DNA of 64,000 nucleotides from Candidatus Freyarchaeum deiterrae (GCA_037305845.1 CP147778.1:2912001-2976000); one strand, 5' to 3'. Positions 5,628-15,767 are shown, counted from the first letter of the stretch. Made by a program: numbers and translations. The notes: generated from the sequence alone by a model not told the origin.

Positions 5628-7154
5628 TTGATTTTTCTGGAACTTACTGACGAGGCTAAAGTTAACGGTGGTACGCAGAGTGAACCGGGGGTTTCGGGAA
5701 GGACGTTTGGATTCTACGTTGCTGACGCTCACACTCATATCGGAAAAGAAGAAGTCTTAGAGTATGGAAGGAAAGCCTATAGGGAAAACAGTCCGAAACT
5801 TACTCTAGATTTCTATCAGAGGCTCCAGTTTGAGATTATTAACGCTATGAAAATAAATCCCAGCGGATACTGTTTTGTCCCAGCGAAACCTTTTACCAAG
5901 CCTCCAACTTTACAAGGCATGCTTTCCGAGGGCACACCCGATGCTCGAAGTATAGGCTGGACTGTTGACCAGTTCGTAGCCTTCCCCTTCAACGAAACCA
6001 CCGCCTATAAAACCAGCCCAAGCTTCCAGATACCAAACGACAGGGTTCTGAGCCGGGCAACAGTTCTCCCCTATTCCCTGAGAATGTTCGGCTTCGTAAG
6101 AGTTGACCCTCACGATGGAGATAAAGCTGTTCAGGAATTAATACGGTGCAGTCGCCAGAGAGCGAGAGGATTAAAGCTTCACCCCATTTCGCAAAAGTTC
6201 CTAAGCGAGATGCATTCCGAAAATGTGAAGAAAGTCGTGGCCACAGCAGCCAGACTCGGTTTGCCAGTCCTCTTCGACTGCAGATACCAGAGCACAGCCG
6301 AGGATATATACCGACTGACACAAGAAGTTAGAGACGAAATAGGAAGCAGCGACTTCGCCATAATAATAGGGCACTCGGGAATGGAGTACACGAAAGACGA
6401 ACTCTACGAATTCTTCAAAGACCCTAACGTCTACGCTGAAACCTCCGGAGTCAGAGGTTACGATGTTCCCCTCTTCTTCAAGAAGATGAAAAGCCATGTT
6501 CCCAACTGGTCAAGCAAGATCGTATTCGGAACAGACTACAATTACTTCAGCCTCCCCCAAGCCACAGACTTCCTCACCTACCTCTTCACAAAGGAGTTCC
6601 GCGACCAAACAGGAGGCACCCCCGAGGACATACAGCACATTCTTGCAGGAAACCTTCTATCAATAATTAAACCATTCATAATGTCACCAATCGAAGGAGG
6701 GAAAACTCCGAAAGACGGGAAACTTTACCGAGTAGGCTACGAACACGCAGATGCGTTCCTCAAAAACTTGTCACAGAGAATATCCTCCCTAATTGGGGGA
6801 AAAAAGCTAACCTACGTTACTTACGATGTCTTACTCTCCTCCGACTTCGGGATGGACTCCGAAAGCTTCCTCATAAACCTGTCCCGCGAGAAGGTCACAG
6901 CATCACAGGTCAATGAAGTCATAGTGGTTGCCAAGAGGAGGGATGAAGCAGGAGAGTGTCTGAATGTCTGCAATGTTACTGGGAAATTACTCCAAGTAGA
7001 GGAAGACTACAAGGAAGGGGGGACGCCGCAGAAAACAATACTCAACAATAAACTCTACACAAAGCTAATACACGAAATCGTCTTAAGCGCAAACCAAGAG
7101 AAAATCAAGACCAGAGAAGAAGCCGAAAAACTTCCAAAAATCCTAATCCTCTAA
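5628..7154 (+). CDS. Amidohydrolase family (TIM-barrel, amidohydro_2-like) protein with C-terminal extension
   Basis: DAHTH, GLKLHP, IIIGHSG and VFGTDY metal-binding motifs. Confidence 0.85.
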   Translation: MIFLELTDEAKVNGGTQSEPGVSGRTFGFYVADAHTHIGKEEVLEYGRKAYRENSPKLTLDFYQRLQFEIINAMKINPSGYCFVPAKPFTKPPTLQGMLSEGTPDARSIGWTVDQFVAFPFNETTAYKTSPSFQIPNDRVLSRATVLPYSLRMFGFVRVDPHDGDKAVQELIRCSRQRARGLKLHPISQKFLSEMHSENVKKVVATAARLGLPVLFDCRYQSTAEDIYRLTQEVRDEIGSSDFAIIIGHSGMEYTKDELYEFFKDPNVYAETSGVRGYDVPLFFKKMKSHVPNWSSKIVFGTDYNYFSLPQATDFLTYLFTKEFRDQTGGTPEDIQHILAGNLLSIIKPFIMSPIEGGKTPKDGKLYRVGYEHADAFLKNLSQRISSLIGGKKLTYVTYDVLLSSDFGMDSESFLINLSREKVTASQVNEVIVVAKRRDEAGECLNVCNVTGKLLQVEEDYKEGGTPQKTILNNKLYTKLIHEIVLSANQEKIKTREEAEKLPKILIL

Positions 7155-7262: not shown

Positions 7263-7979
7263 TTACATGTTTCTGGATGAGTAGAAAACTACAGCCCAGA
7301 GAATGAAAGATATGAATATCAGTCCAAAGCCAACAATCAGTAGTACGTACCAAACACCGCCTAAAATGAAAAACATCGCACCTATGATGCTTAGAATCCC
7401 CGCAGCTGATGAAGCCCCTGGACTATCGGTCATATCACGCACCGAATAACTCGCCGAACCAACTAAGATGAAGGCAACACCCAGTATAAAGAATCCTATC
7501 CAGATAAGGGGAAAATTCGGCGTAGGCACAGGTAAAAAGGGAACCGCTTGCATTTCTACCATTAAATTTGCGTACATATACCCAGTTGTTAGGTTTCCCA
7601 TAATGATAAGCAAAGCTCCCCCTGCGATTACTATAATGCTGAAGATGAGACCCACTACACTCATCGCCCCTCCACCACTCTTGTGTATGCCGTAGAAGCC
7701 AATACCGATGAGAACACCGGTCACAATAAGGAGTATAGCCAATATAAAAGATGATACACTGAACGAAAACCAAGAAGGAGAATAAAGTGGGGGAGATGTG
7801 GGTTGTAATCCACCATATCCCGGTTCAAAGATAGGAATGAGGTAACTACTCCATTGCCCTAAGTAATTGTTCATGTCGGTTAGAAACGAGTAAGTTATAA
7901 AAACCCATATTATCCCAAAAGCTGCGGTTACTGTCCCTACTATTCCACCAACTGCACCAGATAGTAACGTTTTAGACAT
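7263..7979 (-). CDS. Multi-pass membrane protein
   Basis: About six hydrophobic segments; SD ggaggt. Confidence 0.8.
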   Translation of the reverse strand: MSKTLLSGAVGGIVGTVTAAFGIIWVFITYSFLTDMNNYLGQWSSYLIPIFEPGYGGLQPTSPPLYSPSWFSFSVSSFILAILLIVTGVLIGIGFYGIHKSGGGAMSVVGLIFSIIVIAGGALLIIMGNLTTGYMYANLMVEMQAVPFLPVPTPNFPLIWIGFFILGVAFILVGSASYSVRDMTDSPGASSAAGILSIIGAMFFILGGVWYVLLIVGFGLIFISFILWAVVFYSSRNM

Positions 7980-8246: not shown

Positions 8247-9620
8247 ATGTCAATGATAAAGGTAGAAGTTATAAACGCTGGATCTGCTGAAGGAAGAGCT
8301 TTCATGAACAAGAATGACATGCAGAACATTGGCGCTGACGACTTCGACGTTATAGTTTTTATCAACCAGTACGAGGATTGGGGAGCGGCTCAGGTTATCG
8401 CGAGCAACGACTGCGCCGCCGGATACATAATGGTTGATGGATCGGTTCTCAACTCGGCAAACGTTTCAGAAGGAGACGCTGTCACCGTAAAGCGGAAAGA
8501 AGCGGTCGGTGGAGTTACTAACGTTCAAATCGGTGTGGAGCCGATGGCGGGTCAACCTACTGAGGAAGTTGTAGTTTGGGTTGCCGACCATGCTGACGAC
8601 CTTGCCCGTCTTTTGATGAAGAGGCCAATATACAGAAATCTTTCGATAGACTGGAGGGATGCAGAGATCGACCACATCAAGCTCAAAGTGCAGAAGACTA
8701 CTCCAGAACTCTACACGGAGGACGTAGCCATTATCGATCCTACTGGTAGAGAAGTAACTTTCGAGATTGTTCCCGCTGTAGACATGACGTTTAATGCCGT
8801 TCTTATGATTGATGTGTCTGGTAGTATGCAAAAGCAGGATATGAGAGTTATAAACGCTGATGGTGCGGTGGAGGGACTCAGAAGAGGGCTTAAGGAAACC
8901 CCTCAACTGAAGGACTTCATAGTTTCCATGGAAGAAGGAGCCATGGTGAGCAGAATAAAGAGTTCAGCACTGGCAACGCTCCTCTACCTCTCACTCAAAA
9001 TAGGTAGAGGATGGGGCGAAAACGTTCAGGTCATAACCTTCGCAGACGGGGCTGAGCCTCTAAGAGTAACGGACGCGGATGGAAACGTAAGCACAGTGAT
9101 AAAATGTACCGGTGAGAGCAAGGACATCGGACTTGAAACCATAGCAAACTATATCATAGAAAAGTGCAAAGAAGGAAGCGGACTAACATACATGAGCGGA
9201 GCAATAAAATTAGCCTCGGAAATCGCACCAGGGTTCCCATCAAACCCGAAAACCGGTCAACCATCCCCTATAATGTTCGTACTACTCACCGACGGAATGC
9301 CCAACAAGGGAGACTCAGGACAAGGGATAACCGTAAACCCCATACCCGCAATAAAGAAGTTCATGTCTGGGCAGACCGGCTGGGTGCTCTACTGCGTAGG
9401 AATAGGCGAAGCAGACGCTCAACTTTTACAAAAAATGGCGGAGCTTGGTAGAGGCGAGTTCCTCAAAGCAAGCGACTTCGGTCAGCTTTGGAAATGGTAC
9501 GACACTCTGGCTCAAAGGTTCGCCATCGCTGTTAAAACCACTCCCTCAACTTTCGTAGCCGAAGAAGAAGAAGTAAGAGAAATAAGAGAAGTAAGAGACG
9601 AAGGAGAGGATGCTGCTTAA
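8247..9620 (+). CDS. CDC48/VAT N-domain-like region fused to a vWA domain (no AAA ATPase)
   Basis: N-terminal pattern GYIMVDGSVLNSANVSEGDAVTV...LMKRPI...KVQKTTP resembles the CDC48 N subdomains; intact MIDAS (DVSGS, GLTYM, LTDGMPN); acidic C-terminal tail. Confidence 0.8.
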   Translation: MSMIKVEVINAGSAEGRAFMNKNDMQNIGADDFDVIVFINQYEDWGAAQVIASNDCAAGYIMVDGSVLNSANVSEGDAVTVKRKEAVGGVTNVQIGVEPMAGQPTEEVVVWVADHADDLARLLMKRPIYRNLSIDWRDAEIDHIKLKVQKTTPELYTEDVAIIDPTGREVTFEIVPAVDMTFNAVLMIDVSGSMQKQDMRVINADGAVEGLRRGLKETPQLKDFIVSMEEGAMVSRIKSSALATLLYLSLKIGRGWGENVQVITFADGAEPLRVTDADGNVSTVIKCTGESKDIGLETIANYIIEKCKEGSGLTYMSGAIKLASEIAPGFPSNPKTGQPSPIMFVLLTDGMPNKGDSGQGITVNPIPAIKKFMSGQTGWVLYCVGIGEADAQLLQKMAELGRGEFLKASDFGQLWKWYDTLAQRFAIAVKTTPSTFVAEEEEVREIREVRDEGEDAA

Positions 9621-12600
9621 GGCGCAGCTATTATTTCCCCTTTCTCTTTTTTTATTAATCGGTCAGAAACAGGCTGGCCATCTTCAGTCATTCTAAAGTC
9701 GAGAAGATATCTGGTACGGTATGGAATCTCTGGAATTTTCCAAGAGTAGGTACCGTAAATTTCTGTTTCTCTTTTCTGCTTAATGTTAAAGCCCGCAATT
9801 TTCATTTCTTCCCCTTGACTCGTGGCGTAAACATTGAGCTTGAGATCCTCACTATTATAGTTTTGTTTTACTACCACGTCGAAGTAAACTTTATCACCGC
9901 TATTCACCATATTGGGAATGCTCGGTGAACCCCTAATTTTAACTTCCAATGGTGCAACCTGTGGTTGAATAATTTGAAACCTGGTGGAAGATATCCACTC
10001 CTCCGCCTTACCCTTTTCCGCGTTATAGGAAAGCCTTGCAATGATGAAGCACTCTTTACCAAGGGTGTAAAGAGGTGGAGTGAAGACTTCATCTATTTGT
10101 CCCTGCTCCCCGGGCGTTAGCTTTAAACGATTACTTCTAAAGGTAGTCTTTTTCGAATTTAGGGGCAAGAGAGTGAAATCAACATCCACCTGGAGACTCT
10201 TCTCCGAGTTATTTCTAACTCTGAGTACATGCTTACCAGCCTCCCCCGCTTTCACGGCCCCCTGCAAGAGGGGAGGAGTAACATCAATAAGAGACTTTTG
10301 TTGCAATACATCAAAAGAGGTTTCCCTCGAGCCTATTCTTACATCTCCCACACTCAGACTAACTTCCAGCGAAGCCTTTTTCACTTCTGAGGGAATATCC
10401 CTGATTCTCATTGGTAGCGGTAGTAGATAGGTTCCATCCTCTCCTATAGTAAAGGAGTAAATCTCCTTCTGAATATCTACCTTTTCAGAAGAAATCTCTA
10501 GGTTAATGAAAAGATTCACTGGATCAAGCACATAGTTAACTTCAACCTCGATTAAAGGAACAATCCTAACTCCAGACATTATACCTTGCGGAGCATTAAC
10601 AAATCCATGAAGCCTCAATATTTTATTTACGTTGGGCGACTTTACAAGAATCTCTTCCGAGTCAAGCTTCTCTATAGCTGTTCCCTGGTAGAGAACCTCT
10701 GCTCTAAGCTTAAATCTTCTAGACTTGGGGAGATCTTTCATCTTGAATCTGTAACTTACTTTCTTTTTGTCTGATATGTTAAACAAGCTGTGGTCTACGA
10801 GAACTTCCTCCCCATTCACAGGGCAGTAATAAATATTCAACCCGTAAACCCCCGCCAAATCCGGATTAAGATTCCTGACCTCAATATCAAAATCGCAGTC
10901 CGAATCCAGAACCAATTCTTTCTCCTTAGAATGAACGTAGAGAGAAACCTTCGGCGGCTCAACAATCGAAGCCTCCACAGCCTTAGACTCCCTTACCCTC
11001 TTCGCAGTCACAGGCCTACTAACCACTGGCATACGAGCAGCACTAGTAGCTTCAGATGCTTCAGCAGTCCTTGGTAAACGCTGAACAGGCGGCTCCCGCC
11101 GTTCGGGAATCCTGGGCTCGGGTTTCGCAATTCGTTCCGTAAATGTTTTCCTCTCAGAGAATGTCTCCTCTCTACTGGGTATCCTTCTTGAAGCTTCAAC
11201 TGGAACTCTGGGCTCGGGTTTCGCAATTCGTTCTGCGGTCGGTTCTCTCGTAGTAAGTGCCCTCGCCTTCGTAGGAGTCTTCCTCGAAACTCCCGAGGAA
11301 ACCGCTGACTTAACGCCCCTCTTCTCAGCTTTCCCCATCCTTGAAGATGTAGACTTGGACTTCACTGTTGGCGTGACTGTTTTCAACTTCAGGGTGGATT
11401 TGGGATTTGCTTTGACACCCTGCTTAACTTTTTGAGACTGGGCTCGCATCTGTGTTTGAGTATATGCTTTGGGTTGAGCACGCTGAGGAATTTTTTGAGG
11501 TGGAGTTCTGATACTCGGCTGTGGTCTTCCCCTCTGGGTTACTTGCAGAGATTTGGTTTCAGTGGGCAATTTCGCCGTTACTTGAATTTCTGGTTTCATC
11601 GGTTCCGGTTCCGGTTCCTCTTTCGGGATGATTGATATGTTCGGGGTTCCATGCTCACCTACTACCCGCGACTTATAGAGAACCTGGGCTCTTATTTTCA
11701 GATACGCTTCCTTGGCGATTTCACTTGTTATTTTTAGCTTGTAGGGTATGTTTACTGTCGTGAGGCTGGTTAGATTCTTTTCTAGCTCAAGTTTGGAAGC
11801 TCCACTCGGAAGCCTTCGGTAAACGCGCAGCTGGTACCTTCCAGCGAACTGAGGAGTGTTGTTTGTCACTTGAATGTTTATATCGTAACTTCCGTCCTCA
11901 TCGACCTTTTTGGGAACGGGAGAAGTCTTAACCACGATGTTTGGTGTGGCAATTACCTTGAAGACATTGGTCTTTATTTCTGCTAACTCGTTTTTATTCT
12001 TGTCACGCACAGTAAACTGGAGAAAGCAGCTCTTGGTCTTGGAGAAGGCTCCAAAGGGCACTACAAGCGGGATAGCAGTCCCTCCAAATGTCGTCTCTCT
12101 ACCCGGCTTGAGTAAAACATCCTTTACCGCCGTGCTAACAACAGACTCCTCCCCGCCCACCCTAGATAAAACCTTTCCAAGAACTGTGACCCGTGTTTCA
12201 GAGTTGCTATTTGAAGTGAGACTCAGCTTGAAGGGAATCCGCTCCTGAGCAACAATCAGATTAGACTCCACCGAGCCGGAACCATTCACGGAGAGAGTAG
12301 GAGCAGCAGCAGCAACAGCAACAGTAGTAGGCGCAACGGCGTGCGCACGCTTAGCAGCAGCGGCAGGTGCAGCTGTGGGTACTCGCTCAGCAACAGCCGC
12401 CTTGGCAGTCTCTTCAGGGATTCCGAAGAGCTTGGTTATCGGGTCTTCTGTAAGGTTTGTGCAAAAATCCTCTGTTATCTTAATAAGGTTTGAAGTAACA
12501 CGAGCGAAGTCACCGCCTGAAGACTGGTAGAGGTAGAGAAGATAGTCCGCTGGGGAGCAGGGGGGCTCAAGTTGGCGGGTTCCCATTACAGATGTTAAAA

Positions 12601-13816
12601 CGGGGTTAAGGTACTCTTGGAACCCTAGTTCCTCAATTTCGTTTTGAATAAATCTCAGCATGCTTTGAACAGCTTCAAAAAGCTTCGTGTTCGGCTTACC
12701 AGAGTCGGGATTAGAATTATAGTACTTGGCGAACGACTTATCAGAACCGCTAAGATTCTCGTCCGGTAAGAATTTACCGAAGAGCCCAAACTCAACAGCC
12801 TTTTCCCGGTTGTCAACCAGAACCTCGGATTTCACAGCTGGCAACTTCTGACCAGATTTAACAAGCTTTGTAGCCTTGTATGCGAGGGTTTGAATAATTG
12901 CAATGAGAGCGAGTCTGCGTGCAACACTAAACTGGGTGTCAAAAACTCTCATCTCGATTGTTCCATAGTCGGTAAACGGCCACATATCAACAAACTTATC
13001 GTCGGGGGCCTCCCTGTTTACAACCTTATCAAAAATCCTCCTGTCAAATCTCTCAAGATAGGGGATGTAGTGATCCTTGTCTACAGGTCCCATCTGACCC
13101 TTGTTAAAACTCAGCCTCAGGCTTCTCACACTGTTCTGACTCAGAATGAAAACCTTAGGAGCTTTCTTTACTTTTACATTTCCTGTGGGTGCCTCATTTA
13201 TAAATGGTGAGTCTACAGCGAGCGCAATGAGGTGAGGTATAAAACATCGCAGCAGATTATATGCAGCTAGTCTATCCCTAGTGTCAGATATACCGATGTG
13301 GTAGTGGTCGCCGAAGGTAACTCCACTGCGGTACTCGGCTTCCCTTGGGTTAAAGCCAATTGATATAATTCCATACCCACTTGGCAAGGAATTCAGAGCA
13401 ACTCGGTAAAGAGACCTTATCCACCATCCCAGCTCTTCCATAGTCTCACACGGTGGGGTTACTAGTTCAAGAATCCAGGTGACTTGACTTATGTTCGGGT
13501 CCGGGCCGAAAGACATGATCTCAATGTTCTTACTGCCGTGCATCCTGTAGCTTACAGCAATGTAGGGCAGCCTTCTCCCCTGGCGTTCCTTCTCCACCCG
13601 CCACACACGAACAAGTTTCTCCCTCACGATGCTGGGGGCACCTTCGAGAACAGTTTTCTCCAGAATCGCTCCTGCACGTTTAAACAGGTTATCCCAAATC
13701 TTTATGAGGCGCTGACCCTGAAGAAGGGCACCACTCTGGTCTACTATCTGAAGCTCCATCTCAACACCCTGAGTAAAAGGAAGTCGTTTGCCACTACTAC
13801 TACTCAATTTAATCAC
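9617..13816 (-). CDS. GCS2/YbdK-family carboxylate-amine ligase fused to Ig-like beta-sandwich repeats and a basic disordered region (1399 aa)
   Basis: GVEMELQIVD, LELVTPP, FGDHYHIG, DSPF and GTIEMRVFD motifs in aa 1-465, followed by an Ala-rich linker, beta-rich ~110-aa units and a K/R/P/S/T-rich region. Confidence 0.85.
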   Translation of the reverse strand: MIKLSSSSGKRLPFTQGVEMELQIVDQSGALLQGQRLIKIWDNLFKRAGAILEKTVLEGAPSIVREKLVRVWRVEKERQGRRLPYIAVSYRMHGSKNIEIMSFGPDPNISQVTWILELVTPPCETMEELGWWIRSLYRVALNSLPSGYGIISIGFNPREAEYRSGVTFGDHYHIGISDTRDRLAAYNLLRCFIPHLIALAVDSPFINEAPTGNVKVKKAPKVFILSQNSVRSLRLSFNKGQMGPVDKDHYIPYLERFDRRIFDKVVNREAPDDKFVDMWPFTDYGTIEMRVFDTQFSVARRLALIAIIQTLAYKATKLVKSGQKLPAVKSEVLVDNREKAVEFGLFGKFLPDENLSGSDKSFAKYYNSNPDSGKPNTKLFEAVQSMLRFIQNEIEELGFQEYLNPVLTSVMGTRQLEPPCSPADYLLYLYQSSGGDFARVTSNLIKITEDFCTNLTEDPITKLFGIPEETAKAAVAERVPTAAPAAAAKRAHAVAPTTVAVAAAAPTLSVNGSGSVESNLIVAQERIPFKLSLTSNSNSETRVTVLGKVLSRVGGEESVVSTAVKDVLLKPGRETTFGGTAIPLVVPFGAFSKTKSCFLQFTVRDKNKNELAEIKTNVFKVIATPNIVVKTSPVPKKVDEDGSYDINIQVTNNTPQFAGRYQLRVYRRLPSGASKLELEKNLTSLTTVNIPYKLKITSEIAKEAYLKIRAQVLYKSRVVGEHGTPNISIIPKEEPEPEPMKPEIQVTAKLPTETKSLQVTQRGRPQPSIRTPPQKIPQRAQPKAYTQTQMRAQSQKVKQGVKANPKSTLKLKTVTPTVKSKSTSSRMGKAEKRGVKSAVSSGVSRKTPTKARALTTREPTAERIAKPEPRVPVEASRRIPSREETFSERKTFTERIAKPEPRIPERREPPVQRLPRTAEASEATSAARMPVVSRPVTAKRVRESKAVEASIVEPPKVSLYVHSKEKELVLDSDCDFDIEVRNLNPDLAGVYGLNIYYCPVNGEEVLVDHSLFNISDKKKVSYRFKMKDLPKSRRFKLRAEVLYQGTAIEKLDSEEILVKSPNVNKILRLHGFVNAPQGIMSGVRIVPLIEVEVNYVLDPVNLFINLEISSEKVDIQKEIYSFTIGEDGTYLLPLPMRIRDIPSEVKKASLEVSLSVGDVRIGSRETSFDVLQQKSLIDVTPPLLQGAVKAGEAGKHVLRVRNNSEKSLQVDVDFTLLPLNSKKTTFRSNRLKLTPGEQGQIDEVFTPPLYTLGKECFIIARLSYNAEKGKAEEWISSTRFQIIQPQVAPLEVKIRGSPSIPNMVNSGDKVYFDVVVKQNYNSEDLKLNVYATSQGEEMKIAGFNIKQKRETEIYGTYSWKIPEIPYRTRYLLDFRMTEDGQPVSDRLIKKEKGEIIAAP
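11112..11233 (-). repeat. 26-bp exact direct repeat encoding ERIAKPEPR twice
   Basis: ctgggctcgggtttcgcaattcgttc at 11112-11137 and 11208-11233. Confidence 0.9.
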
Positions 13817-14078
13817 TCTCTTGTTCCCTAGGACAGGTGGTGCAGAATCTCACACAACATATCCTTTATAACATATCTGGGAGTTGAATGATAAATTTCT
13901 TTCTTTGTCAGCAATTTCATAGATATACTTTAATTCGACTCTAAACTGGTTGCGGTGTGAAAATAGGATAAGGCAGCCGATTTAAAAGTGGAGTATAAAG
14001 GATATTCGTTGGGTTTTCTCCTTTAAATCGGGATATTAAAATAAATGTTTTTTTATTATTATGTTTTAGGTATGTATT

Positions 14079-15101
14079 CTAATCCTTTTTTTCCTTTGCT
14101 TTTCTTTTTTTAGTTCCTCCTTCTTCTTCTCCTTTGTCTTTGGTTCCGTCGATTGTGGAGAGGGTTTCGATTCTTTTGGCTACTTTCTGTACAAGTGATT
14201 CCAAGCTGCTTATCAGTTCCTCATCTTTAGGAAGCTCATCCCATTTCTTGGAGACAACCTCTCTTCTTTCTCTTAGAATCGTGAGGGGCTTCTGGAGAGG
14301 AAGCAGAGCACTGGCCTCAGTGATTGCTTTAGTTGGGCCTTTCTTTTTCAGCGTATCCACCAAACCGAGCACGATTCGATCAATTAGAATCTCGAAAAGG
14401 GCTCTTGAGCCCTCATTCATGATTGCTCTAATAAAGAGGAAGAACTCACTGTCTCCAATTTTTCTGAAACGCCATTCTTCGGATCCCGCTTCATGGCTGC
14501 TGGAAAACTCCAGTTTTAAATTCGATTTATTGGGCACGCTTTTGAGCATGTTTAAACAAGCGTAACGGATGCTGAGGTCTGGTTTGGCTTCCTTTTCCCA
14601 GCTGGCGGATATGCCTCCCTCTAGAGAAATCAGATAGACATTCTGTAGAATTATGTTTATCATTCGTCCCTCGGAAAGCCAGCCAATCTCTTTATCTATG
14701 TAGGATTGAAGCCTTTGGGGCACAACTTTTGCTTTAATAATATCCTCTATGCTTTTCCTTGTTTCATCGTCCAGCTCAATGGTTGCCTTCAATTCTTTTT
14801 CTAAATCTACATTTTTCTCGAGTAAACTAACTAATTCATCCAATTTAGAGTACATGATTTCCATATTGTCAGACACGTCAAAGATGCAGACCCAGAGACC
14901 CTTACCGGTCTCTTTAAGCAGAAGTGTGTATAATCCAAGCTGAATTTCTCGATAAAGGTGTTCTTTACTAAAAATCTGGGTAAGAAACTTGTTTAAAGCA
15001 CTCAACATACCCGAAAATAGGGTAAAATTGATGCCCAAACCATCATCATGTACCACGTGTCCTATTCCGTCCTGGGTAATGACAAGTAAGGCGTGTATCA
15101 A
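14079..15101 (-). CDS. Longin/roadblock-like domain protein
   Basis: N-terminal IHALLVITQDG...LFSGMLSALNKF pattern typical of Asgard longin-fold proteins; second NVYLISLEGG module; divergent from the GTPase. Confidence 0.65.
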   Translation of the reverse strand: MIHALLVITQDGIGHVVHDDGLGINFTLFSGMLSALNKFLTQIFSKEHLYREIQLGLYTLLLKETGKGLWVCIFDVSDNMEIMYSKLDELVSLLEKNVDLEKELKATIELDDETRKSIEDIIKAKVVPQRLQSYIDKEIGWLSEGRMINIILQNVYLISLEGGISASWEKEAKPDLSIRYACLNMLKSVPNKSNLKLEFSSSHEAGSEEWRFRKIGDSEFFLFIRAIMNEGSRALFEILIDRIVLGLVDTLKKKGPTKAITEASALLPLQKPLTILRERREVVSKKWDELPKDEELISSLESLVQKVAKRIETLSTIDGTKDKGEEEGGTKKRKAKEKKD

Positions 15102-15218
15102 ATATTATAACCCCATCATTATGAATGTTTGATAAAAACTCTTAAGGTACAAAAGCTATTTATTCTTAGCGGAACAAAAAATCTATGACCAAGAACCCTG
15201 TAAGTGAGGTAAAACTGC

Positions 15219-15767
15219 ATGCCAGACAAATACATATTCAAAGTACTATTACTCGGTGAAGGAGGCGTCGGCAAAACCACTCTAAAACAAAGGTACACAG
15301 AAGGGCTTGTTGACCCCATATACAAAACCACAATAGGTGTGGATTTTGGACAAATAGACACAAAACTCGCCGAGCAGGAAATATCTCTGCATTTTTGGGA
15401 CATTGGGGGTCAAATCCAGTTTCGCGATATTTCTGGCGCCTTCTATAAGGGTGCTAAGGCGGCTATTCTGATGTTTGATGTCACCCAGCCTACTACCTTT
15501 GATGGTCTCAGCGAATGGCTTAAATTGATGCAGGAGGAAAATGTTTACAATATTCCCAAGATAATAGTAGGAAATAAAATAGACATCAGAAAATCTGATA
15601 AAGGACATCATGTCACCTCCGAGAAGGCAAAGAAATTCTGTAATAACCTGAAAATGGAATACTTTGAAACCTCAGCTCTTTTCGGCGAGGGCACGGAGGA
15701 ACTATTAAAGAATCTGGTAAACATCATCGCAACGACCTACCTCAGTATAAGTAAAAAAGCGGTGTAA
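15219..15767 (+). CDS. Rab-like small GTPase (Ras superfamily)
   Basis: G1 GEGGVGKT, G2 TIGVDF, G3 WDIGGQ, G4 NKID, G5 ETSA; no C-terminal Cys. Confidence 0.95.
   Translation: MPDKYIFKVLLLGEGGVGKTTLKQRYTEGLVDPIYKTTIGVDFGQIDTKLAEQEISLHFWDIGGQIQFRDISGAFYKGAKAAILMFDVTQPTTFDGLSEWLKLMQEENVYNIPKIIVGNKIDIRKSDKGHHVTSEKAKKFCNNLKMEYFETSALFGEGTEELLKNLVNIIATTYLSISKKAV

Follow-up and report, generated by a model that had tools for sequence, protein, structure and literature searches.

The locus and its genes

The window, a 64,000-nucleotide stretch of Candidatus Freyarchaeum deiterrae DNA (GCA_037305845.1, CP147778.1:2912001-2976000), belongs to a closed genome of 3.58 Mb; the names given to its close relatives, Jordarchaeia/Freyarchaeota, place it in an Asgard lineage. 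The window carries a gene for a giant protein with an N-terminal carboxylate-amine ligase domain, together with genes for a Cdc48N-vWA protein and an amidohydrolase (Table 1).

Table 1. Genes and protein regions at the ligase locus, in window coordinates.
Feature	Position	Strand	Basis or remark
Coiled-coil protein, 523 aa	3447..5018	-	Retained next to the trio in Jordarchaeia
Amidohydrolase_2 TIM-barrel protein, 508 aa, candidate eraser	5628..7154	+	PF04909, E 1.9e-12
Cdc48-N (double-psi barrel) plus vWA protein, 463 aa	8229..9620	+	Stop overlaps ligase stop
Whole ligase gene	9617..13816	-	1399 aa; start GTG 13816, or TTG 13807
Carboxylate-amine ligase domain, YbdK/GCS2 fold, aa about 10-465	12422..13789	-	Sequence and AlphaFold
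Ala-rich disordered linker, aa 470-506, poorly conserved	12299..12409	-	Alignment and AlphaFold
Ig-like beta-sandwiches 1 and 2, aa 508-735	11612..12295	-	AlphaFold
Basic K/R/P/S/T-rich arm, aa 735-952	10961..11614	-	Presumed disordered
Ig-like beta-sandwiches 3-6, aa 952-1399	9620..10963	-	AlphaFold; unit 3 repeats unit 2

As a preliminary description of this DNA had reported, the 1399-aa ligase frame is open throughout, and all the motifs listed there are present (GVEME at residue 17, LELVT at 116, GDHYH at 169, DMWP at 277 and TIEMR at 286). The protein has neither a signal peptide nor a likely transmembrane segment, again as described: its N-terminus is not hydrophobic, and hydrophobicity peaks (KD 1.5-1.6) in two windows inside a helix of the ligase core. 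The AlphaFold models show a folded ligase domain at aa 12-449, followed by the disordered Ala-rich linker, two sandwiches at aa 508-733 and four further ones at aa 950-1399 (pLDDT 90.7), so that the earlier count of about six beta units was right.

The fusion of ligase and appendage is real. Among 24 long homologues, 23 have the same six-sandwich layout, complete or as far as a truncation, and one public contig covers positions 8639-14082 with zero differences, although the run behind it possibly derives from the same DNA; the assembly chimera against which the preliminary description had cautioned is thereby excluded. One RNA run yielded two short contigs at 12540-13010, which do not demonstrate transcription. 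In one other genome (G244, L039:5735-9337, minus strand), the ligase is split into frames of 792 and 408 aa, presumably by a stop or a sequencing error.

The ligase domain

The GS-fold superfamily is marked by a GhExE motif, acidic residues on strands 2 and 3, [HD]x[NH], Ex[RK]xxD and a loop Arg (PMC2588565). The ligase domain has the GS fold, and across 41 diverse homologues its catalytic residues are 100% conserved, the strand-5 Arg apart. E19 and E21 on strand 1, D106 and E117 on strands 2/3, and E288, R290 and D293 on strand 6 occur in 41/41, as does R234 in the long loop preceding strand 5, which is probably the equivalent of the YbdK loop Arg; on strand 4, H171 is found in 40 and H173 in all 41, and N238 and D277 are likewise invariant. 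Sequence and model together support the view that this is a YbdK-fold enzyme with a full ATP/Mg and glutamate site.

The ligase lacks the strand-5 Arg of YbdK and GCS2 proper. The unusual DMWP reading of DxRP proved to be family-wide, since the position of W279, which aligns with R228 of YbdK, holds Tyr, Phe or Trp in 41/41 and Arg in none; where YbdK/GCS2 proteins (PF04107; E. coli YbdK 1r8g, Salmonella 1tt4, plant GCL 2gwc) have WDxRP, the present family has R-x-x-D-x-[YF]-P. Its new Arg, at position 274 in 40/41 homologues, may compensate for the loss. The strand-5 Arg was counted as catalytic by Iyer et al. 2008, yet GatB/GatE are active despite missing it (PMC2588565).

The match to the GCS2 Pfam model (E 2.3e-8) exceeds its cut-off. 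That to the YbdK NCBIfam models, at an E-value of about 1e-19, is nevertheless far under the family cut-offs (68 bits against 176 for TIGR02050, 66 against 425 for NF010040), and the broad Pfam threshold is thus the only one of the YbdK/GCS2 thresholds that the ligase clears. The family also differs from YbdK/GCS2 in about 90 extra inserted residues, in its long fusions and constant vWA and hydrolase partners, and in forming a separate clade in the phylogeny.

The appendage and its variation across lineages

In the models, the appendage is built of tandem all-beta sandwiches of about 110 aa, and units 2 and 3, described earlier as internal repeats that bracket the disordered region, do repeat one another (BLASTP 28% over 80 aa, E 2e-9; hhalign 97.5%); no relationship among the other four is detectable by sequence. 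The basic arm between units 2 and 3 has the position previously assigned to it and a net charge of +29; its composition leads us to presume that it is disordered. In 22 homologues a net charge of +14 to +54 is kept but the sequence is not. The sandwiches match only generic Ig folds, with scores tied with those of unrelated Ig domains (Spo0M, TRAP, GH2), and have no sequence match under E 0.03 among solved structures. For a specific eukaryotic home of the array in TRAPP/ASH, complement MG or transglutaminase proteins, no match stood out from the generic ones: the arrays of animal transglutaminases/band 4.2 and of complement C3 MG domains resemble it in fold only, and the papain-like core of animal transglutaminases is missing from the present protein. 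Elsewhere in the genome (1449388-1450557; L032:7392-8558, minus strand), near a probable RtcB gene and translation genes, a separate gene encodes a 389-aa protein without a ligase domain that is paralogous to Ig units 4-6.

The ligase domain was matched in 179 of 301 Asgard genomes, mostly in one copy (E<=0.001, a threshold that includes a few weak, ordinary YbdK-like matches). Lengths differ by lineage: 1230-1400 aa in the present lineage, about 1150 in family f7, 990 in f21 and 1090 in f27. In f9, a family with mostly Promethearchaeota among its named members, they are 550-580 aa. The f9 ligases have no Ig array, carry a Lys-rich N-terminal tail and have an Ig-like gene upstream; those of Loki lack the basic arm and have a Lys-rich N-terminal tail in its place. 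In ligases from outside Asgard, the fusion partners are Zn ribbons or coiled coils as long as 3300 residues, and in Hydrothermarchaeota the domain is nearly stand-alone, at 468 aa. The appendage is, then, not the conserved part of the system.

A conserved trio

The conserved unit is a trio of ligase, Cdc48N-vWA protein and amidohydrolase. In the same 301 genomes, the three members occur in the same ten Asgard families in near-equal numbers, for instance (ligase/vWA/hydrolase) 5/5/5 in f1 and in f2, 65/65/65 of 76 genomes in f7, 62/61/62 of 68 in f9, 17/16/15 of 21 in f21, 11/11/10 in f27 and 4/4/4 of 7 in f23. The other twenty sampled families have no strong match to any member, among them f5 (29 genomes), f12 (19), f14 (11), f19 (7) and f3 (4). 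This co-occurrence is a pattern and would be overstated as a statistic, because kin share genes.

A partner gene lies at most 4 kb from the ligase in 15 of 20 loci, which were chosen before the partners were known (the hydrolase in 15, the vWA gene in 10); in f7, the vWA gene and hydrolase stand together about 10 kb away from the ligase. The ligase and vWA trees have the same main clades. The trio also occurs in Hydrothermarchaeota and in a clade grouping with named Thermoplasmatota sequences. Sequences and models thus support the interpretation that the vWA protein and the putative metal amidohydrolase were inherited with the ligase.

The F. deiterrae genome has two complete trios, the second at 2376351-2383016 (2.376-2.383 Mb; L031:4352-11017) with a 1191-aa ligase whose Ig array differs from that of the first and which lacks a long basic arm. 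Two genes from it lies a gelsolin-like gene (Pfam E 0.004, under cut-off). A contig labelled Heimdallarchaeota (L109:7587-21505) holds two ligases and four vWA genes; one of these ligases groups with the Thermoplasmatota-like clade, through transfer or misbinning.

The hydrolase has conserved residues D33-x-H35-x-H37, K183, H185, H249 and D303, and its metal ligands (HxH, His, His, Asp) are invariant in 16/16, as in the amidohydrolase superfamily. Loci of family f7 (L083:5134-6999, plus strand) have, beside the intact gene, a divergent paralogue that seems to lack the HxH ligands.

Other neighbours vary. The 523-aa coiled-coil protein is possibly an accessory and not a core component; its unnamed archaeal family also occurs in clusters of Bathyarchaeota and Thermoproteota, and a distant paralogue is found at 2258143-2260224 of the genome. 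The 238-aa hydrophobic gene at 7263-7979 is not conserved. A domain shared upstream of the Loki, f7 and second-copy Jordarchaeia ligases was considered as a universal fourth gene and rejected, being absent at this locus. Directly upstream of the ligase (14079-15767) are a weakly longin-like 340-aa gene and a Ras-family GTPase, and loci of f21, f27 and Loki likewise have small GTPase or roadblock genes close to the trio, which may be due to chance. In three related Jordarchaeia loci (L053, L054, L103), the ligase is preceded on the same strand by a 733-aa Cdc48/VAT ATPase-like gene and a probable HTH regulator. In the Thermoplasmatota-like clade, small proteins of ubiquitin-like appearance lie beside the trio (L063:3168-4122, L065:6100-6885), a resemblance for which Pfam gives a weak hint (E 0.036) in only one of them.

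The Cdc48N-vWA partner and its predicted complex

The vWA partner has an intact metal site (D195-x-S197-x-S199, T320, D355) and an invariant K257. In other vWA proteins, a metal site of this type grips an Asp/Glu carboxylate of a protein ligand. The modelled complex of this partner with the ligase domain scored 0.82 (best control 0.00). A score this high was attained by 58 out of 80 solved complexes and by 2 out of 110 mismatched pairs, a calibration that is only rough for the alignment and ligands used here; in a test of the same tool, 7 of 44 blindly picked neighbours passed. Contact agreement between runs was at least 62%, and partner pLDDT at least 82. In the model, residues 48-51 and 75-83 of the double-psi barrel dock on ligase residues 339-348, 225-228, 213-215 and 377-378, and partner residues 256 and 260, either side of K257, also contact the ligase; the predicted interface on the ligase is less conserved than the average (0.38 vs 0.51). 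The model supports binding between the two proteins. No solved complex resembling it came up in our searches. A natural Cdc48N-vWA-ligase fusion protein exists (P0205).

The N-terminal half of DEPDC5/Iml1 has a Cdc48-N and then a vWA-like domain. The domain order of the partner resembles it, but no sequence match was recovered with the IML1 models or the 60 best solved chains, and the one paper retrieved that covers both Asgard archaea and DEPDC5 makes no mention of such a possible link. MoxR-associated vWA adaptors share the intact metal site; in contrast to these, the partner has no constant AAA+ ATPase neighbour among the loci compared. A third Cdc48N-vWA paralogue (about 2444217-2445449; L096:6215-7468, plus strand) has no adjoining ligase or hydrolase. 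In Loki (L087, L089, L090, L091), the Cdc48N-vWA proteins reach 690-760 aa and include additional barrel domains as well as a Pro-rich linker; their genes adjoin a roadblock and a gelsolin-like gene.

A related bacterial cluster

More distant ligases have double-psi barrels within the same chain. A record named Verrucomicrobia (L111:1-17672) has four GCS2-like ligases in one cluster with barrel-vWA, barrel-transglutaminase-like and barrel-Macro genes, plus GATase_4 and GGACT; the cluster looks undescribed, and a second bacterial contig has the same core. Transglutaminase-like, GATase_4 and GGACT families are enzymes able to cut amide bonds. Their presence in place of an amidohydrolase supports a gamma-glutamyl amide chemistry with a make-and-break logic, be the target a protein or a metabolite.

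Possible functions of the trio

As the likeliest reading, at about even odds, we propose that the ligase is the catalytic subunit of a three-protein module that makes a glutamate-type amide on a protein or peptide, with the vWA protein selecting the target and the hydrolase reversing or priming the reaction. The ligase would phosphorylate the gamma-carboxylate of free glutamate, or of a peptide's Glu, with ATP and couple the activated glutamate to a protein or peptide amine. The vWA domain would select or present the target, and the amidohydrolase would recut the amide or, by deamidation, create the acceptor carboxylate. The preliminary description had the appendage dock the enzyme on its target. 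The appendage is lineage-specific, and we regard the Ig array and basic arm as an add-on that may localise the enzyme to a polyanionic or filamentous structure and probably not as the core specificity device.

A macromolecular target is favoured by the constant protein-interaction partner, the very large and variable scaffolds and the absence of any pathway enzyme or transporter travelling with the trio. The protein-modifying ligase proposed earlier is partly supported, indirectly, by the co-occurrence of the three genes, the predicted complex and the bacterial cluster; no Pup, no PafA and no conserved C-terminal Glu that could serve as a tag on any trio member were seen. The fuller reading, a reversible archaeal tagging system with a writer ligase, a Cdc48N-vWA adaptor or reader and a TIM-barrel eraser, which would glutamylate cellular proteins or cross-link them by isopeptide bonds and would have arisen on the GS fold independently of pupylation, falls in our judgement a little short of an even chance; in the ten Asgard families that have it, the trio is mostly single-copy.

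GS-fold protein ligation is known from the actinobacterial Pup system (PMC2588565), which we rejected for this locus. Neither the PafA family PF03136 (a positive control was detected) nor the Pup family PF05639 was found in the genome, none of the adjacent small ORFs with at least 70 aa is shared between lineages as a candidate Pup gene, and no proteasome genes were seen in the neighbourhoods. On strand 6, the ligase keeps ExRxxD and lacks the [QH]x4D of PafA. The candidate eraser is a TIM-barrel hydrolase and not, like Dop, a ligase paralogue.

The nearness of the fold to gamma-glutamyl ligases makes a small-molecule cycle the strongest alternative, although we consider it less likely: the ligase would gamma-glutamylate a metabolite such as cysteine, a polyamine or a cofactor, and the amidohydrolase would remove the group, with the vWA protein as activator and the arm as anchor. 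EgtA/EgtC and PuuA/PuuD are precedents for such gamma-glutamylation followed by removal. The closest structures are indeed the small-molecule ligases YbdK and plant GCL, the loop Arg R234 is invariant, the two trio ligases are the sole GCS2 matches in the genome, the Hydrothermarchaeota enzyme is so short, and the hydrolase's nearest solved relatives are, by weak matches, small-molecule decarboxylases and hydrolases. The genome has PF02955 matches of 285-307 aa, which may serve glutathione synthesis or may be RimK-like ATP-grasp proteins. The neighbourhoods of Iyer, Burroughs and Aravind 2008 likewise combine a GS-fold ligase with an amide-cleaving enzyme, the ligase-transglutaminase and ligase-GATase/GGCT sets resembling the L111 cluster, and those with a peptidase or GGCT were read as peptide-metabolite synthesis; the available text of that paper describes no Cdc48N-vWA partner, Amidohydro_2 protein or Ig arrays (PMC2588565). 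Against a metabolite stand the invariable protein-interaction partner, scaffold fusions of 1000-3300 aa, which are hard to explain for a metabolite enzyme, and the replacement of the YbdK WDxRP by V/Q/C/I-D-x-[YF]-P; moreover, the trio has no redox enzyme, transporter or precursor gene as a constant companion in the lineages compared, and gamma-glutamyl transpeptidase was not found in the closed genome.

Two further readings are weaker. In an improbable one, the GS-fold domain acts as a sensor that binds ATP and glutamate and turns them over, and the Cdc48N-vWA protein relays its signal to a small GTPase, a roadblock protein or the cytoskeleton, ligation being absent or incidental. All members have lost the strand-5 Arg, counted as catalytic by Iyer et al. 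2008, which would suit a sensor of this sort, but GatB/GatE are active without it (PMC2588565), all other catalytic residues are invariant, Arg 274 may compensate, and the metal site of the hydrolase is complete. Several lineages do have small GTPase, roadblock, longin-like or gelsolin-like genes close to the trio. Asgard genomes are rich in GTPase and roadblock genes, and their adjacency is for this reason weak evidence. Least probable of all is a nucleic-acid target, in which the ligase would act on a nucleic acid or its bound acyl group, as GatB/GatE do on Glu-tRNA, with the basic arm binding RNA or DNA: the shared strand-5 Arg loss (PMC2588565), the conserved charge of the arm and the cold-shock or HhH fusions of distant relatives point that way, but the appendage models contain no RNA-binding fold, the partners are a vWA protein and an amidohydrolase and not translation genes, and several lineages lack the arm.

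Significance

Our literature search, mostly outside subscription papers, returned no description of the ligase family or the trio. Both the chemistry and the writer-eraser logic have known counterparts; the way in which the parts are combined does not. If the protein-modifying interpretation is true, the trio would be a second, independent case of GS-fold protein ligation, with its own adaptor and eraser, and a new post-translational modification across much of the lineage closest to eukaryotes, in which the Cdc48 N-domain would be newly used as a docking module without an ATPase. Even a metabolic role would make these enzymes a new subfamily of ligases, one whose active site has been rewired and whose vWA partner is constant.
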